Part shown: one piece after another, positions 2,130-44,629 of the stretch
How positions within the stretch are numbered: position 1 is the first letter of the stretch
Layout of the letters: every line of letters starts with the position of its first letter
Assembly (NCBI GenBank): GCA_040235395.1
Contig: JBECKS010000130.1
Coordinates: forward strand, 3,011 to 67,010
Length of the DNA: 64,000 nt
From: Pseudomonadales bacterium
GTDB taxonomy: Bacteria > Pseudomonadota > Gammaproteobacteria > Pseudomonadales > JBECKS01
Reading direction: 5' to 3'
Made by a program: the position numbers and the translations under genes
Notes under the pieces: model-generated
Database searches by the model: none
Seen by the model: only the letters and a program-made list of their open reading frames with translations
What the model was told of the DNA's origin: nothing

Positions 2130-2482
2130 TATAGAATTCCAATGTAGTTAGAGGACATGTAGCAGGATATAAAACCTGTGGATTATTTTCGAGTCTCTAC
2201 TGCCTTTAATGGGTAAAACCTGCAATCTATTATGGGCTCTAATTCCTTGATTTTTAAAAACAAGTGGAGTAACTTGACCCATTACTCACAAAAAGAACAA
2301 CAACCATAAATAAAAGCTTTTTCCTATACTTAGCTAGTCTTTGTTGTCTTGGAAAACAAGGGGTTAGACCCAATGTGCGTCAATCCCGGTAGACTGAAAA
2401 TTAACGGATACAGAATCCAGATAGTTCCTGTTAAAGAGGAATATTCTCAGGCTTGTATAGGGTTGTACTAATGGAGCAAATC

Positions 2483-18131: not shown

Positions 18132-21100
18132 TTATTCACTTTTCTGTTCTTCGCCAGTCAAGGCTTCATCAATTCCCTTGCCAATTTTTTTGAAAATTTT
18201 CAACGTTAGAATATCAGTCACGATACCTAAGTTAAAAATTCCCAACGCTTTGAATTTCTTGGATTTGATATCAAGCTCCACGATGCTTCCATCAAAGATT
18301 TCCAACCCCGCTTTGCCTGACATCGCATCGTAATCAAAATCCATCGGCGAACCAGGCCATTTAATATCGATTGTCATCAAACCCGAACTTTTTGAAGAAG
18401 GTTTAAGGTTTAAAGCACTGAACAGTTTTGTTGCAGCTGCCGTTCTTAAATGCCCCTTGAAATGCGTCACCGATTTATCTTCACTGTAATTCCAACGCCC
18501 AGTTCCGTTGATAGTCATCAAACCATAATTCAATTGATGCACATTAAAATCCATCCCATGATCATCTGGCATTAAATCAATCCGCCAACGCCCATTCTTC
18601 AAGGAACCCAATACCACTGTAGCAATATCAATCTGAGCAAACATAAAATCATCAGGCACATAAGGTTCTGTCACTTTTTTAACAGCCACTTTTTTGCTGT
18701 ATTCCCCACGCCCTGAATCATCCTTAACGGTTACCTCTTGATATTCAATGCCCTCTAACTGCTCCTCAGTTATTTTCAAATAATCCAGTTTAGCTACGAT
18801 TGGATTCTTTTTTGAAATCAATTCTTCATCTGGTACCCATATCACACCTTTTAATACTGAATTTTCAACATCTACACGCCACCTGAAATATTCTCTTGTT
18901 ATAAAAGCTTTCAGATTTTCCAGTTCCTGATCAAAACCTGTAAAACGATCAACCGTCACATCAACCCTATTGATAATGGCTGCCGTATCGTCTTCCTCTG
19001 TATTCATGGCAGTGGCTTTAGTAGGTGAAGGATTTGTAGACGAAGGATTGGTAGATGAAGGCTGTGCAGACGAAGACTCTGTACTCTGCTCTCCCACATC
19101 ATCCATCAGGTTTTTTTCGATATAGTCTACCCATTCATCGAAATCCACATGATCTATTCTTCCAGTTACAACCAACCCTGAATCCTGAGGCAAAGGATAA
19201 AAACCATCTCCAAAATGAATTCGACCTCGATCAAAATCACCGTTTTCGCCAACGGTTTTAGTAACAACACCTACACGTTTTCCATAATCCATGCGATAAA
19301 TTAACCAATCAGGAAATACATCAAGCTGAAGCGTACTCGCCACTGGAACATTTTCTTTTTTAGCGTAAGTTCCTGGCAAAACAATGGCGGTATTTTTCAA
19401 ATCCGTGTTTACTTCTACCCTGACAATCGACTCCTTGCCACGATAAGTATCACCAGTTAAAGGTAGTAATTCAGAGCTTTCATTACTCGCAGCAGGCACG
19501 CCAAGTTCTGGAAGCAAATCGTTTACCGCTTCCAAATCACCAATCGATATAGTCACATCAAAATCTGCAACACCGCTCAAATTATCGAACAACCAGAAGC
19601 TTTGCCAGCTTTTAAGATCATCAGCACTGAGCTTCCCCTTACCAGAAATCTGAAACACTTGTTCTCCTTCACTTTCATGTGTCTCTATTTTTCCCTCTAT
19701 CGGCTTATCAAAAAAGAGCGCACTTAAATGCTCTGTGCTCAGTCCCTCTTTTAACGAATAGTGCAGGTCGGTACTCAGCGACTTCACACCCAACCTGACA
19801 TCAGGAATAGCGAGTAAGGCATCTTCTGTTTTGAGGTTGACTTCTATCACCTCCTGCTTTTGACCAGGCTCATCTGAAAGCGGCAAATCAAGCATGACAT
19901 CACTTTGCTGACTGCCTGTTAATACCCAATCTTCAATAACGTGACCAAGAATTTCTTTCAATTCACTTTGCAAGAAAAGTTTCTGAACATCTCCTAAACT
20001 TCCAGATGACTGAGCGGATATCTGAACTCGAGGAAGGTTTTCCTTTAGATAAGATTCAATTTCAACTTGCCCATTAAACAACCGAGAATCAAACATTTTT
20101 GCTGATGATACTTTAGCCCTGACTCTATCGTTATGAACTAAAACATTTGCTTCTACTTCGTCTACCTGCGGCCAACGTCCAGGTAAATAATCAAGACTAG
20201 CATTATGTACATCGATATCGGTATCGAGCGTTGCAAAGGTATAAGGTTCATAGCGCTTCAAAAAAGCAAACAGAAAAATATCTCCTTCAGCTTTACCGTG
20301 CTTCAGAAAATCATCAATCCAAACAAGCAAAGACTCAGGTAATTTTCCAAGAAAAAACATCTTGATGTTTTCAAGCCCCATGGGTTGGATATGCGCTTGC
20401 AAGGACCAGGCAGGTATTTCTTTTTCACCTGTTTGATAATTTCTAGCTGGAATGTTTGCCTTAAACCGTCCATGTGCTGAAATATTATTAGCATGTAGTT
20501 CTGCTATATCACTGGAGATAACAATATCACCAGGAATCATTTCCAACAGCAGATTGGCAGAGAGTGAAGTGATATTCAGGTTTTCCCTGAAAAGATAGAA
20601 ATTTTCTTCGAGCAATGCGTCAAAGGTCTGTAGTTCCACACCCAGAACCTTAGGAGCATATTCAGCATAAAAATCTATGCCATGGACACCTGGCACTTTG
20701 TCAAAGGCGGAGACACCAATATCCTTAATGTAAGCACTGGCATACACTTCTCTTTCGGCATTAAATGGATCATAGGCAAAAACCTGAACTTGCTGAACTG
20801 AACCTTCAGGTGCAGCATCAATAATTTTTTTCTTTTTACTTTCCTCAAGAGGAATATAGGGTATTAATTTCCCAACCAAAGAAACAGGAATTCGATTAAT
20901 CAATAAGCGAGCGAAATCCCTGTTTTCCGGTTTTGATGAATCATCTTCATCAGAGAAATAGAAGGCATTCCATTCCCTTGCAAGCGGTTGACTTAAGTGT
21001 TCTGAGCGCCCTTGCTCAAAAATAATTGCCAGATTTCGCCATTGAAAATCACCCCAGGCAAGTTCAAAGTCCTTGAGTTTCAACTTGAACGGGATATGCG

Positions 21101-22211
21101 GCAGCAATTTCACATATTCAGATCTTTCTTTACTATTGAGAAGTTTCGATAAAGAAATTTCACTTTTTAACTCTAACTTGAAAGCAAGCTCATCAATATT
21201 GATATCTTCCACTTCAGCACTTTTCTGCTGCTGTTTTTCAACTGTCAAAGATTCTTCCTGCTTTAACTGATATGCAAAAAGAATATCCTTAATCGAAAAA
21301 TCAAGTTTTATGCTTTCAAAAACACCTCTGTTTATCTCTATCCAGCTTTTCAAAGCAACTCTGGCATTTTTTGGCTGAACAATCTGATGCTTCGGCCATA
21401 ATTCATGCTCAAATAAATATGTTAGTTCATTGCGATCAATAGAAAAAAAGCTTCTTGCAGAGAACCCATCAAGATCAAGAGGGTTTCCCTGAAAAACACT
21501 GACGAAATCTATCTTTCTTGGTTTTTCTTCATTTGCAGCCACCAACAACCTGGATTCAAGCTGATGATTAAACCATTCGTTATCTAGGGTAAGAGATGGA
21601 ATTTCTATCCGATAGCTACCATATTTTCCTGCATTCATGCCAAGCTTCATATTCCTGACAAAAATTTGTTCGGCAGTAAAAATATAATTATCCAGAATGC
21701 GTTTCAGTTTTTCCTTACTATCGGAGCCCTGAGGTGTTTCAGGTAAGGGTAAGCCATGAACAAGAAGCTTACCCGTTTCATCATCAAATACTAAGTCACT
21801 AGAAATGCCAGAGATGAGAACTTTTTTTATGCGTGGGGAAAAAGTAAATAAGCTTTCAATCAAGTCAAGCTCAACAGCCAGATGTTCAACTCGCACACCT
21901 TGCTCTTCCAGAGAGCTTTCATCATTTATCTTTTGGACTTCATGATAAGCTTTCCCTTTAAGGCTAATATCACGAAACTCTATAATCGGACTAACTAATA
22001 ACCATCTTCCACTCATTTCTCCAATTTCAAGTTGGAAATCTGTTTTGTCAGCGACTTGTTGCTCAATGACTTCCTTATATTGAGCTACATCTTTAAGTGC
22101 AACACGAAACCCAACCGAAATCATCGCCCACGCCACTAACAGGTATAAAAGCAGATACCTCAAACGTCTAGCCGGATTGGGCGCTGGGGAAAACTGTTCT
22201 TGTTCAGACAT
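18132..22211 (-). CDS. yhdP: AsmA-like envelope protein YhdP
   Basis: 1359 aa with a single N-terminal TM (LRYLLLYLLVAWAMISVGF). Size and position downstream of mreBCD are typical of YhdP. Confidence 0.8.
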   Translation of the reverse strand: MSEQEQFSPAPNPARRLRYLLLYLLVAWAMISVGFRVALKDVAQYKEVIEQQVADKTDFQLEIGEMSGRWLLVSPIIEFRDISLKGKAYHEVQKINDESSLEEQGVRVEHLAVELDLIESLFTFSPRIKKVLISGISSDLVFDDETGKLLVHGLPLPETPQGSDSKEKLKRILDNYIFTAEQIFVRNMKLGMNAGKYGSYRIEIPSLTLDNEWFNHQLESRLLVAANEEKPRKIDFVSVFQGNPLDLDGFSARSFFSIDRNELTYLFEHELWPKHQIVQPKNARVALKSWIEINRGVFESIKLDFSIKDILFAYQLKQEESLTVEKQQQKSAEVEDINIDELAFKLELKSEISLSKLLNSKERSEYVKLLPHIPFKLKLKDFELAWGDFQWRNLAIIFEQGRSEHLSQPLAREWNAFYFSDEDDSSKPENRDFARLLINRIPVSLVGKLIPYIPLEESKKKKIIDAAPEGSVQQVQVFAYDPFNAEREVYASAYIKDIGVSAFDKVPGVHGIDFYAEYAPKVLGVELQTFDALLEENFYLFRENLNITSLSANLLLEMIPGDIVISSDIAELHANNISAHGRFKANIPARNYQTGEKEIPAWSLQAHIQPMGLENIKMFFLGKLPESLLVWIDDFLKHGKAEGDIFLFAFLKRYEPYTFATLDTDIDVHNASLDYLPGRWPQVDEVEANVLVHNDRVRAKVSSAKMFDSRLFNGQVEIESYLKENLPRVQISAQSSGSLGDVQKLFLQSELKEILGHVIEDWVLTGSQQSDVMLDLPLSDEPGQKQEVIEVNLKTEDALLAIPDVRLGVKSLSTDLHYSLKEGLSTEHLSALFFDKPIEGKIETHESEGEQVFQISGKGKLSADDLKSWQSFWLFDNLSGVADFDVTISIGDLEAVNDLLPELGVPAASNESSELLPLTGDTYRGKESIVRVEVNTDLKNTAIVLPGTYAKKENVPVASTLQLDVFPDWLIYRMDYGKRVGVVTKTVGENGDFDRGRIHFGDGFYPLPQDSGLVVTGRIDHVDFDEWVDYIEKNLMDDVGEQSTESSSAQPSSTNPSSTNPSPTKATAMNTEEDDTAAIINRVDVTVDRFTGFDQELENLKAFITREYFRWRVDVENSVLKGVIWVPDEELISKKNPIVAKLDYLKITEEQLEGIEYQEVTVKDDSGRGEYSKKVAVKKVTEPYVPDDFMFAQIDIATVVLGSLKNGRWRIDLMPDDHGMDFNVHQLNYGLMTINGTGRWNYSEDKSVTHFKGHLRTAAATKLFSALNLKPSSKSSGLMTIDIKWPGSPMDFDYDAMSGKAGLEIFDGSIVELDIKSKKFKALGIFNLGIVTDILTLKIFKKIGKGIDEALTGEEQKSE
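19021..19080 (-). repeat. four imperfect tandem 15-nt repeats inside yhdP, encoding (N/Q)PSST units
   Basis: Plus-strand units are gtaggtgaaggattt / gtagacgaaggattg / gtagatgaaggctgt / gcagacgaagactct. They translate on the minus strand as ...QPSSTNPSSTNPSPT... Confidence 0.8.
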
Positions 22212-28622: not shown

Positions 28623-29411
28623 CTACTTTCTTACTTTCCCCGTTGCGCTATACCAATTACTGTTAGGGAATTTTTTCTGCCTGGCAGCAATTTTCTTATT
28701 AATGGCTACTTCAAGCTTTAGCGCTTCAACATCTTCTGACCCCTTAAGGTAGGGAAGTGCGGGCTCCTCAATTAACAATAAAGTTGCTTTGGCATCACTT
28801 AATGGCAACTGTGCTACTAAAGCCTTGATGACTGTGGACGAACCCATAACATCAAAATCTTTCTCCCTGAGTGTTCCACCTTTACTTACATAATCCCTCT
28901 TCGGCTTAATAAGACGCTTGATGGTTGATAGCGTCAGTTTACGCGTATCTTCATCATCAACATTAAGAAAAACCAGAAGCTTGGGCACATCTTCAATGTC
29001 GTGCATGTTCTTGAATACATCTTTAGTTAGCCCCCTGGCCTCTTTAACAACATAAGGCTTGTCACTCAATTTCACGAAATACAAGAGGTTATTCATATCA
29101 TCAACACCCAGTGATAGTTCCAGTTTTTCTAGATGGGCCTTGAACTTTTCCTTATCAAGCTTTGACTGATTGAAGACACTCTGTTGTAGATAACTAAAGG
29201 CAAGAAACATAGTAGCCTGATTATCCTTACTATATTTTTCAGTTAAAGCTATACAAGCCTCATACTTATCATCTTCAAACAACCTTTTTGCTTGAGATGT
29301 CCATGTAGCAGCTTGTACTGAAGATGCAAATAGCATCACAAATGCTAATGTAAAAACCTGGCGGAATATCGTTGTTAATTGATGATTAACTATTGATTTA
29401 TTTTTGTTCAT
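28623..29411 (-). CDS. hypothetical periplasmic/secreted protein
   Basis: 262 aa. Signal peptide ...FVMLFASSVQA. The rest looks largely helical. No family recognised. Confidence 0.5.
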   Translation of the reverse strand: MNKNKSIVNHQLTTIFRQVFTLAFVMLFASSVQAATWTSQAKRLFEDDKYEACIALTEKYSKDNQATMFLAFSYLQQSVFNQSKLDKEKFKAHLEKLELSLGVDDMNNLLYFVKLSDKPYVVKEARGLTKDVFKNMHDIEDVPKLLVFLNVDDEDTRKLTLSTIKRLIKPKRDYVSKGGTLREKDFDVMGSSTVIKALVAQLPLSDAKATLLLIEEPALPYLKGSEDVEALKLEVAINKKIAARQKKFPNSNWYSATGKVRK

Positions 29412-32593: not shown

Positions 32594-34471
32594 ATGTTGT
32601 CTGGAACCAGTCAATTTGTTCGAGCTACGTTGTTAGCATTTGCTTCACTGCTAATGCTAGTAAATTCACCAGCTTATGCCCGCTTTGGTGATGGCCTTGA
32701 AGCTGAAGAAATGGAGGCATTGAAGAAGGCCTGGGATTTGGATCCTGGTGCAATCGTTAACAATAACAAGGTGCTGAAAAAACTTTCAGCAGACCAAATC
32801 TCTGAATTAATCGAATACAAAGATACTTCCCACTATAGCTTCTTACACGTTGTTGTGGTTAAAGGTGAAGAACTCGGTAATGGTGCCTTAGGAAAACAGA
32901 ATTACAAACTATCCATCATGACGCGCATTGGAAACCGACTGGAACCAATCCCTTTCCAGATAGATGAAGTGGATTTATCAGGTCTAGCCTATATTCCAGG
33001 TCTTAAAAAACGGGATTATGCAATTGACGGTACTGAAAAGGTTTTCGATAAACAGGACGAAATAGCTTTCATGTATCGCGATGCAGGCTTGGAAAAATAT
33101 CAGGCAGGCAAAACCTTGTTACCCAGAGGAAAGGTGCTAAAAGAAATTGTGCTTACCTTTCAAGACCGAAAGCCCAGATACGCTTACCTTGTCGAGGATA
33201 ACAACAAAAGAAACACTGCTAATTATGTCAACATGGACATCGCCACAGGGAATTTCGACTCCACTTATTACAACATGAGCTGGGATCCCAACAACTTTTC
33301 ACAGATTCGTAATGTTATTCCCAAAGTTGGACCGGAACAGGGTAAAAATGTGCTGGACAACATTTACTTTGAGGTAAGCACTGGAATATTTAACAAGAAC
33401 GTTCGTTTCGGATTGAACTCCAAAAAACATATTTTTGCTGAGATCATTGGCATCAAACAAGGCCCAATCAGGGTTAACGCCATGGTAAAAGGAAGAGTCA
33501 AGTATGTTGGCATACCCTCCATGCCTTATTACGTGAACATGGTTTTCAGTGAACAAAGTATAAGCTTCAGAAGCCGTACAACATTGGATGGTTATAAATA
33601 CGCAAAATACGCAGCTGCCATTTTAAAAGATCCTGGAATTTACGTGAGCATGGACTTCCATAATATTGACGGCGCTCACATTAATTTCCATTCCATAGCT
33701 GATTCCAATGAGTTGCCAACAGTGGATGGGAAAATGTCTGCAATTGAGCACCGTATTAACGAAGAGAGACTGCCTGGAAACTGGTTCTGGATCGACAGTG
33801 GTCACGGCTGGAACATCTATTTTTCTAATAACTGGCCCATCATAGAAGGAGGTCTCTTCGACGCTTTCTTGGCGGGCATGTCCTTCCACATGGTGTATGA
33901 AGACGATATTAGCAAAACTACAGAATATGAACGCTTCCCTGGTGGCGAACCGAGAATAGGTGTTGAAGGGCGAGGGATTCCGCAGGTAGCAATGGAATTG
34001 ATAAGCTCCATTAGCGGTATCCCCTTTAGCGATGTTCCTTCTATGGGCGGTCTTGTTGATTTTATGATTGAAGAGGGTGACAAAGGGGATCTTAATAAAT
34101 TAAACAAGATTGTTGCAGAAGTGCTCGTTGAACAGAGGGAAATGGGTAAAATCAAAAACAGCAAAGAGCTAGCTGATGCATTTTTGGCAGACTTCAATTT
34201 AGTAGGTGTTAGAAGTCCAAATAGGCCTAAGTTGAATCAGGCGTTTCGTACTACTATCGAGAAGCTGGATAGATTTGAGAATTTTAATGTAGGTCAGGCA
34301 GCAAAGGATTTCAAAGCAGCAAGTAAAGCAATTGGTCTTGATCTGGAACTGATTCATTATGCCCCCAGAGACAATGTGCTCTGGTTTCCGGACTCAATGG
34401 GCGATGGAGGCCCGGATGGTTTCAGGATAGAAGTTCAGGAGCCTCCTAAGTTTAAAATTAACAACATCTAG
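32594..34471 (+). CDS. large hypothetical secreted protein
   Basis: 625 aa. Signal peptide ...LLMLVNSPAYA. No recognisable domain or motif. Followed by a strong terminator. Confidence 0.55.
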   Translation: MLSGTSQFVRATLLAFASLLMLVNSPAYARFGDGLEAEEMEALKKAWDLDPGAIVNNNKVLKKLSADQISELIEYKDTSHYSFLHVVVVKGEELGNGALGKQNYKLSIMTRIGNRLEPIPFQIDEVDLSGLAYIPGLKKRDYAIDGTEKVFDKQDEIAFMYRDAGLEKYQAGKTLLPRGKVLKEIVLTFQDRKPRYAYLVEDNNKRNTANYVNMDIATGNFDSTYYNMSWDPNNFSQIRNVIPKVGPEQGKNVLDNIYFEVSTGIFNKNVRFGLNSKKHIFAEIIGIKQGPIRVNAMVKGRVKYVGIPSMPYYVNMVFSEQSISFRSRTTLDGYKYAKYAAAILKDPGIYVSMDFHNIDGAHINFHSIADSNELPTVDGKMSAIEHRINEERLPGNWFWIDSGHGWNIYFSNNWPIIEGGLFDAFLAGMSFHMVYEDDISKTTEYERFPGGEPRIGVEGRGIPQVAMELISSISGIPFSDVPSMGGLVDFMIEEGDKGDLNKLNKIVAEVLVEQREMGKIKNSKELADAFLADFNLVGVRSPNRPKLNQAFRTTIEKLDRFENFNVGQAAKDFKAASKAIGLDLELIHYAPRDNVLWFPDSMGDGGPDGFRIEVQEPPKFKINNI

Positions 34472-34489
34472 GGGGTGTTGTTGGAGCAA

Positions 34490-34528
34490 CCATAAAAAAA
34501 AGCCGCATTAAGCGGCTTTTTTTTATGG
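34490..34528. terminator. bidirectional rho-independent terminator (perfect 17-bp arms)
   Basis: CCATAAAAAAAAGCCGC-ATTAA-GCGGCTTTTTTTTATGG lies between convergent ORFs. Confidence 0.8.
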
Positions 34529-34556
34529 CTAGCGAAAAGTAGGCTTGAAAATAAAT

Positions 34557-35582
34557 CTACTTATCTCTTTTTCGTTTTAAAGGAACTGCTGTAAGCAGAA
34601 GTAATAGAATGGACAATGGAAAACGCCCTTCTGGACAGCTTCCCCCTGGTTTAATAGCGTTTATAGGGCTAACGTGATTTGCCGCCGTTTGGGTATAAAT
34701 TAAATCACCATTTACTAAATTGGTGGCTGGAACACCAAAACCTGTGCTGTTGATAGAAAGATTGGTAATTCCCTGGTCAGGCACCAAGGTCATATCAATA
34801 TACATGGAGTAATCTGTACTGCTGCCACCTAGTCTGGGTCTAAAATCCATCTGAATCTGAATAGCACCACCACCCAAGTCTGTTAAAAGAATACTATCCA
34901 CGTTCCAGTAAAGTGGTCTTGGCTGCCCACCAACAAGGGCCAAACCTGATCCATGTTGCCCACCATTGACAAAAGCATCCCTCAAATCTGAATTCTTGTT
35001 CTTGCACTCAATCACATTACCATTGTTGGTTGGCTCACCTAAATTTTCAGTTAAATCTTCAAGCAAAACCAAACCAGTTCGCTCAACACGCCCTCTACCG
35101 GTATCCTGACAACTATTTTGATCTACTGGATAGCCACTGACATAAAAACCCATGAAGTCCATCCATTCCACACGGCTTCTAGTTTCAAACTTCAACAGAA
35201 CATCATTTAAGCCCATCCAGTGTTCAAGATAGATGCCATAGAGTGACAAGGAGTCTTCATAGTTTCCGAAATAAAGAGTCAGCTCATCCCCAAACACAAT
35301 AGGGTTTAATTTAAGACAGCCTCCACCAATCGTTTCCTTTTCTCCAACGGTAGCTACAACAGGTTTGGTACCACCAAAATTAAACGTGTAATCAGCAAGG
35401 TCATAATCCCATGTATTATTACTAGCAATAGGAAGCAATCTGGATAAATCCAGATCAAGCACCTGATCATTTGCAGGAGTAATAAGGTCAACGCTAGTGG
35501 TGATATTTACCGCGTGTGCCATGCCTGTGGAGGCCACAAGAACCACGCCAAACATTGCTTTCAAATGCCTATACATCTTCAC
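34557..35582 (-). CDS. hypothetical secreted protein with a C-terminal motif/TM/basic-cluster tail
   Basis: 341 aa. Signal peptide ...VVLVASTGMAHA. The C-terminus is ...KPGGSCPEGRFPLSILLLLLTAVPLKRKRDK. Confidence 0.55.
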   Translation of the reverse strand: MKMYRHLKAMFGVVLVASTGMAHAVNITTSVDLITPANDQVLDLDLSRLLPIASNNTWDYDLADYTFNFGGTKPVVATVGEKETIGGGCLKLNPIVFGDELTLYFGNYEDSLSLYGIYLEHWMGLNDVLLKFETRSRVEWMDFMGFYVSGYPVDQNSCQDTGRGRVERTGLVLLEDLTENLGEPTNNGNVIECKNKNSDLRDAFVNGGQHGSGLALVGGQPRPLYWNVDSILLTDLGGGAIQIQMDFRPRLGGSSTDYSMYIDMTLVPDQGITNLSINSTGFGVPATNLVNGDLIYTQTAANHVSPINAIKPGGSCPEGRFPLSILLLLLTAVPLKRKRDK

Positions 35583-35931
35583 TATGGGTAACTCTCTTAC
35601 TGAACTTAATTATTATTCTTTTCAATGCGATATATACCTGTCGGGCACCAAGCCTACCCCTACAAGGTAATGTCTACAGCCTTCCAATACTACAACAATT
35701 AGCATCAGAATGTTAAACCAATTTATCAAAAGTCCCTCATTCGCACCTACTATATTGCTGTAATCAACACCACCTTAACAGCTGTCATCCACCATTTCAT
35801 TTGACTGACTAGAGAGCAAAAAACCCTAGCAGGGGAGGAAGGTAACGCTAAATATGATGAAACCGTCAATCCATTGCCCGGATGACCGCACAAAACGCCC
35901 TGAAAAGCCCTATAATTGGCAAGAAAGAGCC

Positions 35932-35950
35932 TCAGAAGAGCTGCTTCTGA
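35932..35950 (-). terminator. possible terminator hairpin after the 169-aa ORF
   Basis: TCAGAAG-agctg-CTTCTGA directly abuts the stop codon. On the minus strand it is followed by GCTCTTTCTT, which is only moderately T-rich. Confidence 0.35.
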
Positions 35951-36460
35951 CTACTCCGTCTCTTCAGGAATGAATATGGCTTTTGTGATATCGAAGTCAC
36001 ATTGGGCTGATTTAGCGCCACTCCTAACTTCCACGCCAAGAGACTTGCTATCAAATATGAATTTATATCCTCCATCCTTACTATCGACAGAGAGCGTAGA
36101 TTGCTCACCCTGAATCACCAAAGCCTGAAATAGTACATCCTTGAAGGAAGCGTATGGATGATCAACGTAAAACTCTGAATAGATTTTTTCCTTTTTAGCA
36201 CTAAAGACAGTAAATACAGTTTCAGGAGAAACAAACAAATCGACGAAACAATCACCCCTATCTCCCGACCGACCCAATTCAATTTTTCCGACACCATTAG
36301 GAAACTTCGAAGTCTGGGCTGCAAGCATGTTCTGAAGCGCACCATTTACTTCCCCATGCTTTCTATCCAATCTAATACGCTCTGCACTAACCATAGTAGA
36401 AACAACAAGCAGAATGGTAACCGCGAGAGAAAGAACTGATTTTTGAAATAGTCTAGTCAT
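35951..36460 (-). CDS. small hypothetical secreted protein
   Basis: 169 aa. Signal peptide ...LLVVSTMVSA. Two Cys in the mature part. Sits 11 nt downstream of the preceding gene. Confidence 0.5.
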   Translation of the reverse strand: MTRLFQKSVLSLAVTILLVVSTMVSAERIRLDRKHGEVNGALQNMLAAQTSKFPNGVGKIELGRSGDRGDCFVDLFVSPETVFTVFSAKKEKIYSEFYVDHPYASFKDVLFQALVIQGEQSTLSVDSKDGGYKFIFDSKSLGVEVRSGAKSAQCDFDITKAIFIPEETE

Positions 36461-36471
36461 ACTCTATTGCC

Positions 36472-37767
36472 TCAACGCAAATACTCTACCAAAATCTTTG
36501 GTAACTCTTCAGCCGCATCATTCAAAAGTAACTGGTGCGCATCTTTATCGTCATAATAAACACGCTGTTGGTTTGATTCTGTTGAAGTACTTTCAATCAA
36601 GAATTTTCCTGTAGATAATGCATGCTCCTGTTTACCGACTTTTACACGATCTTTTGCATCCACAGGAATCCCACTTTCTCTTTGCCAACGGTTATAAAAG
36701 CTCTTTACATTCCTTGTAATAACACGTTTTTTACCTTTGCTAAGACAATTCAGATATTGATCCATGGAAATCTTGGATTGGCAAACAGCATCAGTTTTAT
36801 AAACAGCCGTTAATCTTGAATCACCAAGCCCCATGGGGTCTATTGTTACAAGAAAATCAATATCCCTATTCTTCTTTTTTGCAACTTCAGTTGCTGCCAA
36901 AACAGCAGCACCTCCACCCAAGCCATAACCAATTAATATAACTTTCGAATCTTCCGGAATCTGATTTAATTCTTTATCCATCTGGCTAAGAAAATTGAGC
37001 ATTGAACCGTTAGTTGGAGAACTTTTTGCGGTCAAATCATTCCAGTTAGATTCAACATACTTCGCTTGATACGACTCAACCCATTTCTTTAACTTCAAAG
37101 CCTTCTCAACTTCACCAGTTTTATTACCTGAAATCACATAAATATATGCATGATACGTTTTACCAACATAAACAGGCTTGCTGCTCTTTTTTAACGCGAC
37201 CAGTTCATCGACTTTACTTTGTCTTTTTTTCAGTAACGCCTGAATCTGCTTGTCAGTACTTATCGTTTTTGTAGATGAAGATAATTTAGACTTCAAACTT
37301 GCAATTTTTTCATTGTTAGCTGCAATATCAGCTTCCATCTTCCTTTTTTCAGCTTGCAAATCATTTAATTCCGTTTGTGATGTTTTTTTATCAACATTTA
37401 ATGCGCTCTTCTTTGTTTCATAGGTTCCGCTATTCAGACCTTGGTCAATCGCACCCAAACCCTTATACCAGGTATCAAGCTCCTTTATGTTGCTTTCGAC
37501 GAAATCATAACGCTCTTGAGATCTGGCAATCTTTCTATCATGACGATCCAGACGTTTCTCGTTATTTTTTTGTTCTTTCTCTATATTATCTAACTCCACC
37601 TGAAGACTTGCATTTTTTCCTGCTAACTGTGCTTTTCTCGCCGAAATAGCACTATCAATTTCGTCAATTTCCTTTTGAACGCTAGCTACGTCTGCTTGCG
37701 ACACACTTGAAAAAAAATAAAACGAAACGAAAAAGAAAATCTTAAACAATTGAAGGTTTTTCTTCAT
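36472..37767 (-). CDS. secreted coiled-coil protein with a C-terminal alpha/beta-hydrolase (lipase-like) fold, Gly at the nucleophile position
   Basis: Start taken at ATG 37767 (MKKNLQLFKIFFFVSFYFFSSVSQA). About 170 aa are heptad-like and K/E/Q-rich. A nucleophile-elbow-like strand-turn then reads KVILIGYGLGGGAAVLAA, where GxSxG would be expected. Confidence 0.5.
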   Translation of the reverse strand: MKKNLQLFKIFFFVSFYFFSSVSQADVASVQKEIDEIDSAISARKAQLAGKNASLQVELDNIEKEQKNNEKRLDRHDRKIARSQERYDFVESNIKELDTWYKGLGAIDQGLNSGTYETKKSALNVDKKTSQTELNDLQAEKRKMEADIAANNEKIASLKSKLSSSTKTISTDKQIQALLKKRQSKVDELVALKKSSKPVYVGKTYHAYIYVISGNKTGEVEKALKLKKWVESYQAKYVESNWNDLTAKSSPTNGSMLNFLSQMDKELNQIPEDSKVILIGYGLGGGAAVLAATEVAKKKNRDIDFLVTIDPMGLGDSRLTAVYKTDAVCQSKISMDQYLNCLSKGKKRVITRNVKSFYNRWQRESGIPVDAKDRVKVGKQEHALSTGKFLIESTSTESNQQRVYYDDKDAHQLLLNDAAEELPKILVEYLR

Positions 37768-37911
37768 ACGCAGAACCTTGTTTATAAGTATTAAAATCAA
37801 AGACAAACATATTTTGAATCTAGCAAAGTTAATACAAAGCCCAAACCATTGAAAGACTAAGTCACTTTATTTCCAGACAGGTAGGAATGCCAACTTGAAA
37901 CAGCTACAGGC

Positions 37912-39771
37912 TTAGAACCGATGGGTGTAAGATGCTGAAAAAATTAACATATTAAAAGATTGCTCTGCCCTGTATTCAGCTCCCCTTAATGAAAGGATAG
38001 CCAACGGGTTATCATAAAGACTTTGTTGTGCTGGTTCTGGTTGTGTCATACCCACATGCATAGAAGATAGCGACATATCAACGGTCTTATCATGAGTTAA
38101 CTTATATTCCGCCCCTACTGATGTCAGCCTTAACGTATTAACAGGAAAGATTGCGCCCTCTTTAAGAAAAGGTCTATCCTCATAACCAAAGCGGAAAGCG
38201 AGACGTTTATTCCACTGTTGTTCAACACCAAAAGCCCAATATGATGTGTCAACACCGCCTGCAGGAATAGGTATCGTCGAACCAACGTTATTTGGGCTCA
38301 ATAATCCCAAAAACCCAATCGCATTTACTTCTGTGCTCGTTATGGTTGCATCCCAGGTTTTCCAGACTGAGTAGCCATACCTACGGTATTCGATATTAAC
38401 CTTGGTCTTATCCAACAACTGCAAACTTACACCTGTAGAAAAAGCAGTAGGCCAAGGCAGGAGCAAATCGATGGCTATCCTGTCTGATGAGCTACCATCC
38501 AACAGCAAATTAGTAAACAAGCCAACAACAGGGACGCTATTCAAGCCATTGATAATAGCTGTGATTCCCGGCTCATAATAAACCCTACCGTTTGTGTCAT
38601 ATATATCGTTCTCTTTGGTGCGATATGCCGCCCCCCAAGTCATCCATGGCATGGGCTTCCATTGCACGCCAAAATTCCAGCCATAAACTACTGGTGTTTG
38701 TCCTTCGACTATCACCTCACCTACTTTATCCCATGGAAGAAATGGCCAGTAGCCAGCATCTCTGGCCTTACCAGCATCTACGCGCTCCTGATGAATCTGA
38801 TATAACTGTACACAGTTAAACATCTGGTCATAAATAAACTGGCTACCCGAATCCCTCCTTGACTCGTTGGTTTTACATAAGTCATGTACCACAGCATTAA
38901 GGAAGCCAAGCAACTGGCTCTGGCCGTCGAGATAAAGACTAGTCTGAAGCCTTGATTTACTTACTCTCAGCGCAGCACCTACTGACAACTTGTCAGTTAC
39001 CTGAAACGCCATACCTGGACTAAAAGTAAGCCGCTGTATACCTAAATCGTCCATGAGCGCTAGATTGCCCTGAAAACTCAGTGTTGGAACAGGTGCTTGT
39101 GAAGAAACCTGTGCAGCAAAAGCCACTCGCGAATCCGCTGATGATTTGTATCCAATATTTGGAATTAAGATAGGAACTGCTCCAGGAATGGGAATCTGGG
39201 TATCAAGATTACTCTCTGGACTATCGAGGGGATCATTAGTAAAAATACCATTTGGATTGATTAATTCAGGACCAAAACAAACATCTCCAGGGATATCGTA
39301 ATTAAGACTGGGAACTGATGGATCCAAACCGCCTGAAACAGGGTCTCTCCCAGGATTTGATGCCATTGAACCAGGAGTAAACCCTAATGTCGCAAACGGC
39401 TTGTATGCCGAATCGCAGCGAACTGTATAGCCTCTATAGAATAGAGTGAACTCAGGGTATTTTGGTGTTAGCTGAGGAGAAACTCTTCTGACTACCTGAA
39501 GTAAGGGCGCACCAATCAAACGCCACTCTGAAGAAAAACCAGGCTTCAAATTAATCAATGCTGCAGGATTATAGTGAAGGGAGTCGACACCCACATAATC
39601 CGCAGTAACAGCGTTACCCAAAGCGAAAGCTTTTGGATTAAATGTAAGAATATTTTCAACAACGGCAGCATGCAGGCTATTAGAAGCCATCAACATAACA
39701 GCTAAAAACAGCCCCCTAAGGCTAGCGACCTTTTTTATTTGTTGCACAAAAGGGAGTGAGCAAAAGCCCAT
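37912..39771 (-). CDS. outer-membrane transport protein, FadL/OmpP1/TodX family, unusually long
   Basis: Signal peptide ...MLMASNSLHA. The mature N-terminus FNPKAFALGNAVTADYVGVDSLHYNPAAL matches the FadL hatch-region pattern (remembered E. coli ...[25 protein letters not shown]). Terminal strand ...FSASYTHRF. The start (39771 or 39798) is uncertain. Confidence 0.6.
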   Translation of the reverse strand: MGFCSLPFVQQIKKVASLRGLFLAVMLMASNSLHAAVVENILTFNPKAFALGNAVTADYVGVDSLHYNPAALINLKPGFSSEWRLIGAPLLQVVRRVSPQLTPKYPEFTLFYRGYTVRCDSAYKPFATLGFTPGSMASNPGRDPVSGGLDPSVPSLNYDIPGDVCFGPELINPNGIFTNDPLDSPESNLDTQIPIPGAVPILIPNIGYKSSADSRVAFAAQVSSQAPVPTLSFQGNLALMDDLGIQRLTFSPGMAFQVTDKLSVGAALRVSKSRLQTSLYLDGQSQLLGFLNAVVHDLCKTNESRRDSGSQFIYDQMFNCVQLYQIHQERVDAGKARDAGYWPFLPWDKVGEVIVEGQTPVVYGWNFGVQWKPMPWMTWGAAYRTKENDIYDTNGRVYYEPGITAIINGLNSVPVVGLFTNLLLDGSSSDRIAIDLLLPWPTAFSTGVSLQLLDKTKVNIEYRRYGYSVWKTWDATITSTEVNAIGFLGLLSPNNVGSTIPIPAGGVDTSYWAFGVEQQWNKRLAFRFGYEDRPFLKEGAIFPVNTLRLTSVGAEYKLTHDKTVDMSLSSMHVGMTQPEPAQQSLYDNPLAILSLRGAEYRAEQSFNMLIFSASYTHRF

Positions 39772-40221
39772 AGTTACCTCTGAAAACCCGCAAATCATTC
39801 TTATTTTTAGTTATTTTAAGTCCGTGAAGCTACGCCCGCTCTCCATTGTCCCCGAGCAACGAAATGATTCATGGAAACCTCTTATTCTATGCGAGAGCCC
39901 ACTCTCTATCAATTTTATTTTGGACCCAAACGCTCTGGTTATATGCTTTAAAAAGCCTGAAATCAGTGAGAATTAAGCTCCCAACCACAGTTCCATCTCT
40001 TGAGGGGGTAAGCTGACCGACTTTTTAGGACCTAAGTCCGTCAGTATATACCGAATTTAGTGTTGTGAATCAAGGTAAGCGCCAAATAAGTCTTTTAAAA
40101 GCATAAACTTAATGCCTATTCCTGATATCAAACCTTAATTCAGCAAGATTGACACCTTTTAAGCAAAGCTGTATGAAATATCTGTACAAGAAAACAACAA
40201 TAAATATAAAGAAGGAACACC

Positions 40222-40770
40222 ATGATTACTATTGATGCCCCTATCAGCTTTCTATTGGGCTCCGGCCTGGCATACGCTGCTTCTAAAAAAAGCAATACAA
40301 ACAAAAATGATGTTTTCCTTAAGGGGTTCATCCTTCAAAGCTGTGTTCTTTCTCCAGTCATCCTTTTTTTCATGATTAGATTTGCAGATTGGGAGTGGAA
40401 TTATCTTTTTAACGCTCATGACTTCTTTTTTGGGAGAGAAAACTTGGGAATAGGCGCAACAAGCATAGCCGTTTTAATTGCGTTGCTAAATGCCACCTAT
40501 ATTCTCGGGTTCAAACTGGCCGTTAAACTCATTGATCAGGGGAAAGAAAAGCAACTGCTTATGATGCTAGCGGGCACCCTAGGGCTAGTTGCTATCATCA
40601 TGCTTATCATGCTGAAGGAAACCTTACATATTGGTACCCTGCTTGAATTCCAGAATGAAGAAGCTGGTCTGATTTTTTTAAATATTGAGTTTCTGTTAGC
40701 GCAAACGGGAGCAGTAATTCTTCTCGGCTTAGGCTTTATGTATACGTTGAAGAGTACGCAAGAAAATTAA
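40222..40770 (+). CDS. hypothetical integral membrane protein
   Basis: 182 aa with 4-5 predicted hydrophobic helices. No family recognised. Its stop overlaps the gspD stop. Confidence 0.45.
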   Translation: MITIDAPISFLLGSGLAYAASKKSNTNKNDVFLKGFILQSCVLSPVILFFMIRFADWEWNYLFNAHDFFFGRENLGIGATSIAVLIALLNATYILGFKLAVKLIDQGKEKQLLMMLAGTLGLVAIIMLIMLKETLHIGTLLEFQNEEAGLIFLNIEFLLAQTGAVILLGLGFMYTLKSTQEN

Positions 40771-42908
40771 TTCTTCTCTTCCTGCTGTTCAATTTGTGAT
40801 TCGTTAATCCCTTCCAAATCTGTTTTTTCAGCAGGAGCAGACTGCTCATCTAACTTTTCTTGTTCAATCTGTTTATTATCAGTCTCTATGTCAGAGTCAG
40901 AAACATCTGCATTTTTTCCCCAAACATCTTTAATATCTTCAGGTAGCAACCTGTCTTTAGAAATAGAAATCGCACCGCTACGTTTATCAATCTCGAGCTG
41001 AAGCTCACGAACTCGTTGATACTTTCCTCTACTGATTTCGCCAGCTCTTTTAGCTTCTCTTAAAATTGTCGGTTTAAGAAATACCATCAGGTTTTTCTTT
41101 TCTCTTTCAACCTGACTACTTCTAAATAATGCGCCTATAAAAGGAATATCCCCCAACAGGGGAACCTTTGTTATTTTCTTATTGTCGTCTTCCTGAACAA
41201 GACCACCTAAAACGATATATTCCTTATCCTCTGCAAGAATGGTCGTTTTTATCGAGCGTTTTGTTGTGATTGTATTCGCACCCGCTTCAACATCTCTAGC
41301 TGAAGTACTCAAGTCAGAAGACTGTTGGTCAATCTCAAGTCTGATTGAATTCCCTTCATGAATATGAGGAACGACCTTAAGTGTTAATCCAACATCCTTG
41401 CGTTCAGTTGTAGTAAATGGAGTTAGACTACTACCAGTTGCCGTTGTAGTACCTGTGGTGATCGGCACCTCTTGACCCACAATGATTTCAGCCTCTTCAT
41501 TATCAAGTGTAACTATGCTTGGTGTTGATAAGATATTTGCATTGGAAGTTGTTGACACTGCTTGTAAAAAAGCACCGAATGAAAAGTCACCCTTAGAATT
41601 AAACTTGCCTCCAGCTAAAGTAAGTCCGTCTGCTAAAGCCGGAGGTGCGGCTAAGGTGGAACCACCAGCAGAGAGCACGGATGCGCCAACACTATTTAAA
41701 CTATTGCCAAAATCACTGAAGGAAACACCGCCCACGGGTGCGTTATTACCATTATCACCAAATCCCCACTGAACCCCAAGCGCACGACCAACATCTCCTT
41801 TGACCTCAATAATTGCGGCTTCAATCAAGACTTGTGAACGCCTGACATCCAGTTGTCTAATAATATCCTGAAGTTCTTCCAGACTAGACGGGTCAGCCTT
41901 TACAACTAAAGCATTCAGTGTTTCGTCTGCTTGTATATAGGTTGGCGTTCTCGTTAATTGATTGGCATTTTTCGATGATTTTGACGTTGTAGGCGCCGCT
42001 TGCGCATTCTTGCTCACCAAACTTGTCAATATCTCGGCAACCTTGGCAGCTTCAGCATAACGCAAATAAATAACCTTGGTGCTACCATTTGTAGTCTCAG
42101 CCGGTGTATCCAGTTTCTCAACTAATTCTCTTACACGTGTTCTAGCAGATTTTTCACCTTTTAATATCAGGCGATTCGTTCTCTCATCCGCCACAACACG
42201 AACTCTTGTTGAGGATGCAGCAGCTGCCTTACCGCTCGCTTTCCCCGTTTCGACAGGCGTAAGGTTTTCCAAAAGCGCCACAATATCCGTCACCCATGCC
42301 TGTTTTAATTGAATGACTTCAATTTCCTCGCTCTCTGCACCATCTATCTTTTCAATAATTGAAAGAATTCTCTCGATATTTGCGCCATGGTCAGAAATGA
42401 TAATTGAATTTGCTGAAGGAACAGCTGCAAGACTTCCATATTGGGCAACCATAGGTCTTAGTACTGGAATAAGTTCATTTGCAGGTGTGTTTTTTACAGG
42501 AACGACTCTGGTTACCATTTCTTCACCCTTCACCTCATGTCTTGAGTCGATACGTATAGTGTCTTTTGTTGCCGTGTTATTAGGGACAATCTTGATCAAC
42601 CCTTCCACAGAAGGCACTGCTGCAAAATTATGCACATGCAATACAGAAAGAAATAATTCATAAACCTCATCCTGCGATAATGATGAATGAGAAATCACCG
42701 TTACCTTTCCCTTTACCCTAGGGTCAATAACAAAACTCTTTTCAGTTATATCGGCAACCTGAGTAATAAACGCTCTGATTTCAGCGTCTTTCAGATTTAT
42801 TTTCCATGTCTGCTCATCTTCCGCATGCAGTGCAGTGATATTTAGCAGAAGCAAAAGTAATGTAAGCTGCAGTAATATTTTTTTCACATCTATAACCAGA
42901 TTTTTCAT
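40767..42908 (-). CDS. gspD: type II secretion system secretin GspD
   Basis: 713 aa. Signal peptide, then an N0 domain (WKINLKDAEIRAFITQVADITEKSFVIDPRVKGKVTVIS). Secretin core with VPLLGDIPFIGALFRS. About 50 aa of acidic C-terminal tail. Confidence 0.9.
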   Translation of the reverse strand: MKNLVIDVKKILLQLTLLLLLLNITALHAEDEQTWKINLKDAEIRAFITQVADITEKSFVIDPRVKGKVTVISHSSLSQDEVYELFLSVLHVHNFAAVPSVEGLIKIVPNNTATKDTIRIDSRHEVKGEEMVTRVVPVKNTPANELIPVLRPMVAQYGSLAAVPSANSIIISDHGANIERILSIIEKIDGAESEEIEVIQLKQAWVTDIVALLENLTPVETGKASGKAAAASSTRVRVVADERTNRLILKGEKSARTRVRELVEKLDTPAETTNGSTKVIYLRYAEAAKVAEILTSLVSKNAQAAPTTSKSSKNANQLTRTPTYIQADETLNALVVKADPSSLEELQDIIRQLDVRRSQVLIEAAIIEVKGDVGRALGVQWGFGDNGNNAPVGGVSFSDFGNSLNSVGASVLSAGGSTLAAPPALADGLTLAGGKFNSKGDFSFGAFLQAVSTTSNANILSTPSIVTLDNEEAEIIVGQEVPITTGTTTATGSSLTPFTTTERKDVGLTLKVVPHIHEGNSIRLEIDQQSSDLSTSARDVEAGANTITTKRSIKTTILAEDKEYIVLGGLVQEDDNKKITKVPLLGDIPFIGALFRSSQVEREKKNLMVFLKPTILREAKRAGEISRGKYQRVRELQLEIDKRSGAISISKDRLLPEDIKDVWGKNADVSDSDIETDNKQIEQEKLDEQSAPAEKTDLEGINESQIEQQEEKN

Positions 42909-42911
42909 TGC

Positions 42912-43871
42912 TTATCTACAAAAAGGATAGGTTACCACAAAGGTATTCTCTCCTCTTTGCACCTCTATTCTTGCCAGACAACTTTTAATGACCGAATCAA
43001 TAGCAGCACGATCAGTTTTTAATGTCGATGCAGGATAATTGTTCACCGTTTTTATGACATCGCCTGGCTCAAGACCGACTCGATTCATCCACGTTTGTTG
43101 ACTATTTCCCACTTCAACTCCATCACCTTTATCTTTTAATCCGGCTGTCTGCGCTGCACGCTGAATATTTTGTTCGAGCTGGGAACCATATCCATCAAGT
43201 ACTCTGTCAAATGATTCAAAATCGCCCTTATAAACATCATTTAAGGCAGAGCCTAATTCCCGAATCATATTATCTTTATTATTCCGATTTGTGCGATAAC
43301 TTCTCAGCACATCAGCCTGATCACTTGTGTTCACAGGCTCTGCCATTGGTGTTATCAAACCAGCCCCACTTGATGGTCTAAAGTCTTCACTGAAACGCAA
43401 AGTTTCCATGTTGCCATTCTGCTTTATAACCACCCTATCCTCAAAAACAGCAGCAAGTATTGCTTTGCCCGCAATTGAATCACCTATCCAATAAATTTCT
43501 CCCTCTCCATTTTTGGACTCAGAGATAATTGCACTTGAGCTCGACTCTTTCCTGCCAACCGAGACACCTTGCAGTTCAAGTGACAACTTAGTTTCAGGGG
43601 CATCCACATTAACCTCTTCAACTATTTCGGGAATACTACCCACTTCACCAAAGATATTCTGAGCCAGCAGACTCTGTATGCTAGGTAAACTTGACTGGGA
43701 TTGTTTTTGATTTGCGGCAGGCGCTTGAATTGATTGAGTGACAGGAACGCCAGACATTAAATTCAAAGTAACATTCCCGCTTTGATAAGCAATCAATATC
43801 ACCAGAATCAAAACAGCAAGGTTCAGACTTTTTTCTAATGTAAGCTTTTCAAGAAGAGCACTCATCTTCAC
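42912..43871 (-). CDS. gspC: type II secretion system protein GspC
   Basis: 319 aa. N-terminal TM (LNLAVLILVILIAY) and a C-terminal PDZ-like GLEPGDVIKTVNNYPAS. Immediately upstream of gspD. Confidence 0.7.
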   Translation of the reverse strand: MKMSALLEKLTLEKSLNLAVLILVILIAYQSGNVTLNLMSGVPVTQSIQAPAANQKQSQSSLPSIQSLLAQNIFGEVGSIPEIVEEVNVDAPETKLSLELQGVSVGRKESSSSAIISESKNGEGEIYWIGDSIAGKAILAAVFEDRVVIKQNGNMETLRFSEDFRPSSGAGLITPMAEPVNTSDQADVLRSYRTNRNNKDNMIRELGSALNDVYKGDFESFDRVLDGYGSQLEQNIQRAAQTAGLKDKGDGVEVGNSQQTWMNRVGLEPGDVIKTVNNYPASTLKTDRAAIDSVIKSCLARIEVQRGENTFVVTYPFCR

Positions 43872-44629
43872 ATACCACCTGGTAAGAAAAATACCTGCCT
43901 CTTGATTTCAAACACAATCCCATCTGGATCCCCTCTCAACAACTGAGTAGGAACAGTTACGAACTCAGATACCCTTTCCCTAATTTTTAGATGCGCCTGA
44001 CCATTATTATTCAGATCAATATCTAAAATACCCTGCCCCTTATTCTTTTCGATAACGGAAAGCGTAACGCCCTGATCATATTCATGAAGCTTACCTTCCA
44101 TCTGAGGAAACATAGCCTGACCACCTGAAAGCGCATTTGATCTTACCAAACCGCCCTCCCACGTAATCAGCCCCTGCACTTCTGTAAACTGGCCACCTGA
44201 ACGCACCAAGGTAATATTCTGCAAATAAACATCCGTTGCTATTTCTGCACTGACCCCTTGCGCCTTTAACACTGGATTCAAGTCCTTAGCCTTCGCCAAG
44301 CCACTCAAAGATTCGATTGCTAAAGATCCCGGCCCTATATCAAATCTTGCTTTAGCATCGAGAACAGACGATTTCAAACGAATATCTGCATCCAGGCTTA
44401 CTAATAACAAACTCAATGGATGCAGATCCCAGTCAACAGTTAAGGGGTATCCATTGCTAAAAGCCAACATACGACCTTGCCAGACCGTACCTGTTAGCGA
44501 TTGAACCTGAAATCCACCGCTCTCAAACCGCTTAACAGCTGTCATTGCCAAGGAAGCAGGCAAGGCACTAAGCACCGTGAAGGAATACACCACGAATGCA
44601 ATCAGAAGATAACTCTTGAGTCTAAGCAT
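43868..44629 (-). CDS. gspN: type II secretion system protein GspN
   Basis: 253 aa. N-terminal TM and the family-typical SLTGTVWQGRM (GTxWxG). ATGA overlap with gspC. Confidence 0.65.
   Translation of the reverse strand: MLRLKSYLLIAFVVYSFTVLSALPASLAMTAVKRFESGGFQVQSLTGTVWQGRMLAFSNGYPLTVDWDLHPLSLLLVSLDADIRLKSSVLDAKARFDIGPGSLAIESLSGLAKAKDLNPVLKAQGVSAEIATDVYLQNITLVRSGGQFTEVQGLITWEGGLVRSNALSGGQAMFPQMEGKLHEYDQGVTLSVIEKNKGQGILDIDLNNNGQAHLKIRERVSEFVTVPTQLLRGDPDGIVFEIKRQVFFLPGGM

Follow-up and report, generated by a model that had tools for sequence, protein, structure and literature searches.

A rare set of exported proteins beside two types of outer-membrane barrel in marine Pseudomonadales: a candidate module for handling hydrophobic molecules

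The 64,000-nt stretch of DNA analysed here (the window; positions 3,011–67,010 of contig JBECKS010000130.1, assembly GCA_040235395.1, from a Pseudomonadales bacterium) carries, between acs and the gspN-gspC-gspD genes, a block of six genes for which an initial annotation had proposed an undescribed envelope system. The question raised by this locus is whether these genes belong together and, if so, what they would do at the cell envelope. All six open reading frames (ORFs) were recovered at the positions that the annotation had given (Table 1; all positions are window coordinates). As a system, the six were reduced to a conserved core of four: an outer-membrane barrel, a coiled-coil lipase-like protein (cc), a protein of ~170 amino acids (aa; 169 aa in the window) and a beta-sandwich protein of the 625/430 family (625 aa in the window). 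The other two, of 341 and 182 aa, proved specific to the clade of the window, and the 625-aa family was also found alone. The core trio of cc, ~170-aa and 625/430 proteins is a rare, undescribed set of exported proteins beside an outer-membrane channel, and the evidence below indicates that it serves an outer-membrane route for hydrophobic molecules.

Ten loci had enough flanking sequence for comparison: the window with four relatives from the same clade of uncultured marine Pseudomonadales (L001, L002, L004 and L021; hereafter, with the window, the window's clade) and five long loci from Ketobacteraceae (L003 and L009–L012). In this analysis, the module was seen only in metagenome-derived sequences. 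All ten loci showed the same order: a barrel gene directly upstream of cc, the ~170-aa gene 8–44 nt after cc, zero to two further genes, and a convergent 625/430 gene. The cc and ~170-aa genes were never apart; two short contigs, L013 from Ketobacteraceae and L019, a metagenome contig with a pair of the Ketobacteraceae type, still carried both. The proposal that the FadL-like, cc and 169-aa genes form one operon was borne out to the extent that they are a conserved co-directional unit. A metagenome scan for further module variants returned one short locus only.

The two clades differed in what surrounds the trio. In the four relatives of the window (cc ~47–54% identical), the order was gspN-gspC-gspD, a ~182-aa gene on the opposite strand, the series FadL-like, cc, ~170-aa, A and B (the latter two being paralogues), a 625-aa gene on the opposite strand, and acs. 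In Ketobacteraceae (the five long loci and L013), it was DUF1302, DUF1329, cc and ~170-aa, followed by a ~430-aa gene on the opposite strand. The module proteins of the two clades were 24–45% identical, and the Ketobacteraceae flanks consisted of unrelated housekeeping genes (UvrD, DctP, FAD_binding_4); the 5–10 kb flanks of the Ketobacteraceae cc genes held no FadL, gsp, 341-aa or 182-aa homologue. An EVE-domain gene was located between the 170-aa and the convergent 430-aa genes in L009 (11469–11945) and L010 (6731–7201).

The barrel type is thus swapped between the clades, a FadL-like protein in one being replaced by the non-homologous DUF1302/DUF1329 pair in the other. The Ketobacteraceae proteins matched PF06980 and PF07044 at 514.6 and 527.3 bits, and neither family is present in the window. 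DUF1302 is a predicted 18-strand barrel complexing with DUF1329 (PMC13499233), a LolB-like partner, and the pair occurs in hydrocarbon catabolic islands (10.1101/2020.07.04.188060, PMC13499233, 10.1101/072470); DUF1302/DUF1329 mutants had fitness defects on both Tween 20 and butyl stearate (10.1101/2020.07.04.188060). This exchange of barrels is the strongest evidence for connecting the trio with the traffic of hydrophobic molecules at the outer membrane, and the recurrence of the trio beside DUF1302/DUF1329 strengthens the earlier suggestion that the unrecognised proteins are partners of a porin for such molecules.

The cc protein was modelled with AlphaFold2 (AF2) as a confident helical hairpin (residues 2–103 and 106–194; predicted local distance difference test, pLDDT, >90) and, after it, an alpha/beta domain with a pLDDT of 70–87 in its first half. 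Foldseek placed the hairpin on the coiled coils of CT398 and Smc, and ~110 residues of the head on hydroxynitrile lyases, (plant) esterases, RavL and a Pseudomonas lipase (prob 0.9–1.0, E 6e-3 to 8e-2), the Pseudomonas glumae lipase being among the fold matches. Together with Pfam Lipase_3, the threshold of which was reached by 11 of 16 family members (best E 4.7e-5), these matches are consistent with the label of a coiled-coil lipase-like protein. A PDB sequence search with the family profile gave only coiled-coil noise and sub-significant matches to the nucleophile elbow. One homologue (P0012) has been named a 'predicted nucleic acid-binding Zn-ribbon protein' by the Joint Genome Institute; the coiled coil, a hairpin like that of COG1579/CT398, probably gave rise to this misannotation, as the protein lacks a Zn ribbon and carries a Sec signal for export.

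Class 3 lipases carry the elbow consensus G-H-S-L-G-G. In the cc family the corresponding motif was G-[YH]-G-[LRMI]-G-G in 22 of the 23 sequences available (16 + 7), with G-Y-G-L-G-G in the window; the sole exception to Gly was an Ala in P0021 (G-Y-A-Q-G-G). Also invariant were two Cys and a His, the latter ~20 residues before the C-terminus. Because the nucleophile Ser is replaced by Gly, or once by Ala, in all 23 sequences, the cc protein is on sequence grounds a predicted nucleophile-less alpha/beta-hydrolase throughout its family and not a serine hydrolase or lipase; an enzymatic role as a serine lipase was accordingly rejected.

Immediately downstream, the 169-aa protein belongs to a family of ~22 homologues in which two Cys and a C-terminal (G)ETE are invariant. 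No relative of the protein or its family was found in Pfam, NCBIfam or the PDB, and a profile–profile test against the A/B paralogues was negative. A GAGG sequence overlaps the cc stop codon ahead of this gene. The 11-nt gap between the two genes had been read correctly, whereas the 105 nt given for the gap between the FadL-like and cc genes become 144 nt with the called starts: the ORFs as first read span 36472–37806 (cc) and 37912–39798 (FadL-like), and the public calls start later, at 37767 and 39771.

The barrel of the window was correctly recognised as an oversized member of the FadL family. Pfam Toluene_X (PF03349) matched residues 210–628 at 94.7 bits (cut-off 29.7; E 5.8e-27). Two marks of FadL proteins are an NPA motif in the N-terminal hatch and an aromatic residue at the C-terminus; here, GNAVTADYVGVDSLHYNPAALINL directly after the signal peptide forms such a hatch (…HYNPAAL…), and the protein ends in ...YTHRF, with a C-terminal Phe. 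Its excess length is due to two Cys-containing insertions. The best NCBIfam match was FilD (NF050080), at 129.5 bits far under the cut-off of 970.

The 625-aa protein gave an AF2 model of good overall confidence (pLDDT 85; predicted template modelling score 0.81), with N-terminal helices, a large beta-sandwich core (~86–460) and a C-terminal helical domain. Structural matches in the PDB were weak and limited to supersandwich folds (PL26, GH38 and LacZ domains; template modelling (TM) score ~0.2), while a PDB sequence search with the family profile yielded noise and sub-significant matches only. The ~430-aa protein of Ketobacteraceae aligns to ~86–460 of the 625-aa protein at 24–26% identity. 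The core family comprises at least 1548 representative clusters (50% identity, E<=1e-3), mostly ~430-aa exported forms without the C-terminal helical domain. None of 37 members had a Pfam match, a Pfam scan of 10 longer remote relatives for fused domains gave nothing useful, and profile–profile tests against DUF1329 and the A/B paralogues were negative. As the invariant residues of the family are largely acidic, an enzymatic role is conceivable. The protein was 65–71% identical to its orthologues in the window's clade; together with the FadL-like protein it was conserved to the level of GspD and above that of GspC or GspN, and both appear to be under purifying selection. One further locus (L018) carries two tandem copies of a 625/430-family gene.

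The Sec signal peptides that the annotation had found plausible in the first five products were upheld: each has an n-region with basic residues, then a hydrophobic h-region and a cleavage site of the small-x-small type. Read from the translations, these sites were AYA/RF, AHA/VN, VSA/ER, SQA/DV and LHA/AV. The exported status also agrees with an even number of conserved Cys in the mature cc, 169-aa, FadL-like and 341-aa proteins. Similarly, the four products that the annotation could not assign to a family (625, 341, 169 and 182 aa) had no significant match in Pfam or NCBIfam.

With slightly less than even confidence, we read the core as a four-part envelope module that would deal with hydrophobic molecules, be they lipids, fatty esters or hydrocarbons, at the outer membrane. 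The best reading of the trio is that of a periplasmic accessory module that would bind lipid or hydrocarbon and serve an outer-membrane channel. The barrel, of FadL type in the window and of DUF1302/DUF1329 type in Ketobacteraceae, would let the substrate cross or enter the outer membrane. The lipase-fold head of cc, lacking its nucleophile, may bind lipid without hydrolysing it, and the helical hairpin (~14 nm) could act in the periplasm as a stalk or docking arm that positions the head. The ~170-aa protein, presumably disulfide-bonded and tightly co-expressed with cc, would be its partner or subunit, and the convergently encoded beta-sandwich protein would complete the set. The hosts fit a hydrophobic substrate: alkanes are degraded by Ketobacteraceae (PMC8941889), and Alcanivorax has relatives of the 625-aa protein.

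Several observations weigh against this reading. The C-terminal half of the cc hydrolase-like domain was modelled at pLDDT <50, every alpha/beta-hydrolase fold match of cc had an E value >0.001, and the Lipase_3 score lay at the threshold (22.2–22.3 bits, cut-off 22). The cc family is also very rare: 5.8 billion proteins included 16 homologues, 185,579 species genomes yielded 7 loci, and 241 million metagenome records a single one. The module is carried by two clades only, within each of which the arrangement could partly be inherited synteny. Gaps between the barrel and cc genes were 94–372 nt, so that co-transcription with the barrel is at most a possibility. Members of the 625/430 family are often found outside the module, on their own in Alcanivoracaceae and other genomes, which makes this family the weakest member of the module. 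Finally, the roles of the three core proteins are deduced from sequence, models and linkage. A bolder form of the reading, a periplasmic hand-over machine for lipids or hydrocarbons in which a dead lipase on a coiled-coil hairpin works with a small subunit and a beta-sandwich protein and can be coupled to either of two unrelated channels (FadL and DUF1302/DUF1329) in marine hydrocarbon-associated Pseudomonadales, is possible but doubtful. If true, it would supply the missing periplasmic step of hydrophobic-substrate uptake.

Among the alternatives, the one that survives best assigns the same parts the opposite purpose, namely the export or insertion of a hydrophobic envelope or surface component such as a lipid, a biosurfactant or a Fil-like surface fibre. 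We consider export of a lipidic product unlikely, yet a live alternative. The barrel scored higher on FilD, a 'putative pilus system' model, than on Toluene_X, but far under the FilD cut-off, and no other Fil model matched the neighbouring proteins. In the 625-aa protein, the supersandwich-like core is reminiscent of domains that handle carbohydrates, which would suit a glycolipid or polymer, but the resemblance is at TM ~0.2. For the DUF1302/DUF1329 pair, export of a cell-wall component in concert with BNR and RND proteins has been suggested (10.1101/072470), whereas the locus contains no RND, BNR or pilin-like gene. Characterised FadL-family proteins, moreover, are uptake channels (PMC5989066), and uptake is for that reason the preferred direction of transport.

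It is rather more unlikely that the genes are neighbours merely by inherited synteny of a core region and have separate envelope roles with no joint function. The region from uvrA to gatB is collinear within the window's clade, so that adjacency there proves little; the frequent solitary occurrence of the 625/430 family, the sizeable gaps between some genes and a terminator-like hairpin also speak for this explanation. Against it stand Ketobacteraceae, where cc, 170-aa and a convergent 625/430 gene recur beside a barrel of another family, at 24–45% identity and with different flanks, and the close and unbroken pairing of cc with the 170-aa gene.

A third explanation, for which we see only a small chance, is that the exported proteins of the block are cargo or accessory parts of a type II secretion system (T2SS), hence their position next to gspN-gspC-gspD. 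That these genes abut the block was confirmed with Pfam and NCBIfam; no gspE–M was found in the window. Each of the five loci from the window's clade has them next to the block, even L004, which has a different left flank and an extra, inserted PpnN gene. Like T2SS substrates, all candidate cargo proteins carry a Sec signal peptide, and the invariant C-terminal ETE of the 169-aa protein could conceivably be a PDZ ligand for GspC. Against this, none of the five long Ketobacteraceae loci with the trio had a gsp homologue in the 5–10 kb flank on each side of cc, the gspN and gspC products were much less conserved than the block, and the adjacency falls within an extended stretch of syntenic core genes. 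Since no sequence signal is recognisable in T2SS substrates, sequence can give no positive evidence of cargo. The link to the T2SS drawn in the initial annotation is therefore confined to the window's clade, and the cargo idea is not supported, the arrangement being readable as lineage synteny. The same holds in distribution for the 182-aa gene, whose 3' end overlaps that of the convergent gspD by 4 nt: its orthologues (53–63% identical) are conserved only in the window's clade and absent from the Ketobacteraceae loci. Its product shows four hydrophobic segments and lacks a signal peptide, with far-sub-threshold Pfam and NCBIfam matches only (E 0.018–0.043).

That cc and its small neighbour form a toxin–immunity (Tle-Tli) or lipase–chaperone (LipA-Lif) pair is very improbable: a lipase-fold protein is indeed directly followed by a small exported one, and the P. 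glumae lipase is among the fold matches, but the catalytic Ser is absent in every cc member, cc has its own Sec signal peptide, which effectors of the type VI secretion system lack, the locus is a fixed, strongly conserved, single-copy core position with no effector-type polymorphism, and the conserved ~170-aa partner with its two invariant Cys is unlike Lif foldases, which are ~340-aa helical proteins.

The 341-aa protein, specific to the window's clade, has a signal peptide and a periplasmic domain, carries the conserved motif P-x-G-S-C and ends in a hydrophobic helix with a basic tail. It corresponds to paralogue B of the relatives; A and B have an N-terminal domain in common and the same C-terminal layout, in which a conserved Cys is followed by a linker, a hydrophobic helix and a basic tail. 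The sorting-signal-like tail that had been noted was not borne out by any curated sorting-domain hidden Markov model (HMM). Searches of seven tails at E<=10 gave nothing for the tail of the window and sub-threshold generic matches for one orthologue (LPXTG 14.5 against 15.9, PEP_CTERM 14.5 against 16); GlyGly-CTERM, PEP-CTERM and MYXO-type signals were rejected for want of HMM support, and the tail was read as a plain C-terminal membrane anchor. No relative was found in a PDB sequence search. The sequence is most simply read as that of an inner-membrane protein that faces the periplasm and is anchored by its tail. Under the preferred reading of an accessory module serving an outer-membrane channel, one or two such proteins could form the inner-membrane end in the window's clade, in parallel with AupB and AupA (see below).

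The window lacks the second paralogue of ~340 aa (A), which relatives carry between the 170-aa and B genes, in the place of a 368-nt gap at 35583–35950. Two independent tblastn queries matched the C-terminal tail of paralogue A in the same frame and place within this gap, weakly (E 0.14 and 0.30). Paralogue A may possibly have been lost from the window, leaving a decayed remnant. The gap also holds a terminator-like hairpin (35932–35950) and a promoter-like site (35687–35716).

Table 1. Coordinates of the features in and next to the six-gene block of the window.
Feature	Position	Strand	Basis
625-aa exported protein	32594..34471	+	ORF, signal peptide, AF2 model
Bidirectional intrinsic terminator, A8-GCCGC-loop-GCGGC-U8	34490..34528	between convergent 625-aa and 341-aa genes	Fold energy
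341-aa exported protein (paralogue B)	34557..35582	-	ORF, signal peptide, orthologue alignment
Possible decayed remnant of paralogue A	35667..35834	-	Weak tblastn matches
169-aa exported protein	35951..36460	-	ORF, pairing with cc gene in every locus
cc (coiled-coil lipase-like) gene, 431 aa	36472..37767	-	Public gene call (P0010)
FadL/TodX-family barrel gene, 619 aa	37912..39771	-	Pfam, public gene call (P0232)
Best sigma-70-like promoter match of the region, upstream of the FadL-like gene	39884..39912	-	Consensus match
182-aa membrane protein	40222..40770	+	ORF, four hydrophobic segments
gspD, gspC, gspN (neighbouring context)	40767..44629	-	Pfam, NCBIfam

The terminator at the 625-aa/341-aa junction had a fold energy of −36.3 kcal/mol (z = −6.15), and 0 of 200 shuffled sequences were equally stable; it is predicted to close the two convergent units. 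An Rfam scan of the intergenic regions gave sub-threshold Thr/Leu leader matches on this hairpin and nothing beyond it. The promoter upstream of the FadL-like gene, which matched 10 of 12 hexamer positions, is a consensus match only. Outside the block, the window is core chromosome, with his, murA, mlaC, lpt, rpoN, mgtE, yhdP, mreBC, gatAB, yaaA, acs, uvrA, rpoA, secY and ribosomal protein genes. The G+C content falls to 0.36–0.37 over the cc gene; a recent genomic island was nevertheless rejected, as the block is syntenic across a divergent clade.

Elsewhere in the window, LptC and LptA, which are usually encoded by separate genes, appear to be joined: a 335-aa ORF (9961–10968, +) just upstream of lptB and rpoN has a Pfam LptC domain (14–194) and an LptA/LptD_N domain (206–316) and looks like an LptC-LptA fusion. 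The YhdP gene (AsmA-like lipid transport, 1359 aa; 18132–22211, −) adjoins mreBCD, and mlaC lies at 8376–9044; these envelope-lipid transport genes are ordinary core genes without a conserved link to the block. Four more ORFs had no Pfam match at E<=0.001: 274–1569 (−), 1569–2129 (−), 2453–3646 (+) and 28623–29411 (−), of 431, 186, 397 and 262 aa, respectively. The first showed no relationship to the 625/430 family.

Little is understood of how very hydrophobic substrates cross the periplasm from an outer-membrane channel; FadL probably delivers its cargo into the outer membrane itself, and few partners besides AupB are known. Encoded next to two unrelated types of barrel, a conserved lipase-like protein with a coiled-coil stalk and no nucleophile offers a testable candidate for this periplasmic step in oil-associated marine bacteria. 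The comparison also flags a secreted beta-sandwich family of at least 1,500 clusters at 50% identity, with no Pfam match in the members tested, and gives the little-understood DUF1302/DUF1329 pair new genetic partners. The module is structurally distinctive but rare.

Each part can be set beside a known system. Alpha/beta-hydrolase pseudoenzymes without a nucleophile include CGI-58/ABHD5 and the neuroligins. Like these, cc keeps the predicted fold and has lost the nucleophile Ser family-wide, which implies a binding or scaffolding role; unlike them, it is bacterial, Sec-exported and fused to a long helical hairpin, and the likeness drawn here is one of predicted fold. The barrel resembles FadL, TodX and TbuX (PF03349) in passing the family threshold and in its NPA hatch and C-terminal Phe, but is ~170–200 residues longer owing to its Cys-containing insertions; classical FadL works alone, whereas this barrel is always accompanied by the trio. 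The Fil system of Acinetobacter is a six-gene envelope locus, mostly of outer-membrane proteins, with a FadL-like member, FilD (PMC4751259). Membership of the block in that pilus system was rejected on the sub-threshold FilD score (129.5 against 970) and on the failure of any Fil model to match the other block proteins at E<=0.1; the literature on the Fil system gave no mechanism. In Ketobacteraceae, DUF1302/DUF1329 takes the place of the barrel directly upstream of cc and the 170-aa gene, whereas its partners in Pseudomonas and Shewanella are LuxR, BNR and RND genes and not the trio (10.1101/2020.07.04.188060, PMC13499233, 10.1101/072470).

The nearest characterised analogue, compared by architecture only, is AupA/AupB, encoded by the alkane-uptake operon of Marinobacter hydrocarbonoclasticus, in which the FadL-like AupA of the outer membrane physically interacts with AupB of the inner membrane (PMC5989066). 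There too, a divergent FadL-family protein stands in an operon with an inner-membrane partner of unknown fold, and the system is restricted to marine hydrocarbon-degrading Gammaproteobacteria (PMC5989066). AupAB is a two-gene unit, and its description includes none of the partners found here, that is, the coiled-coil pseudo-lipase, the 170-aa protein and the beta-sandwich protein; the present module also pairs with a barrel outside the FadL family. In this way the module extends the known theme of a FadL-like channel plus partner with protein families that had lacked description.

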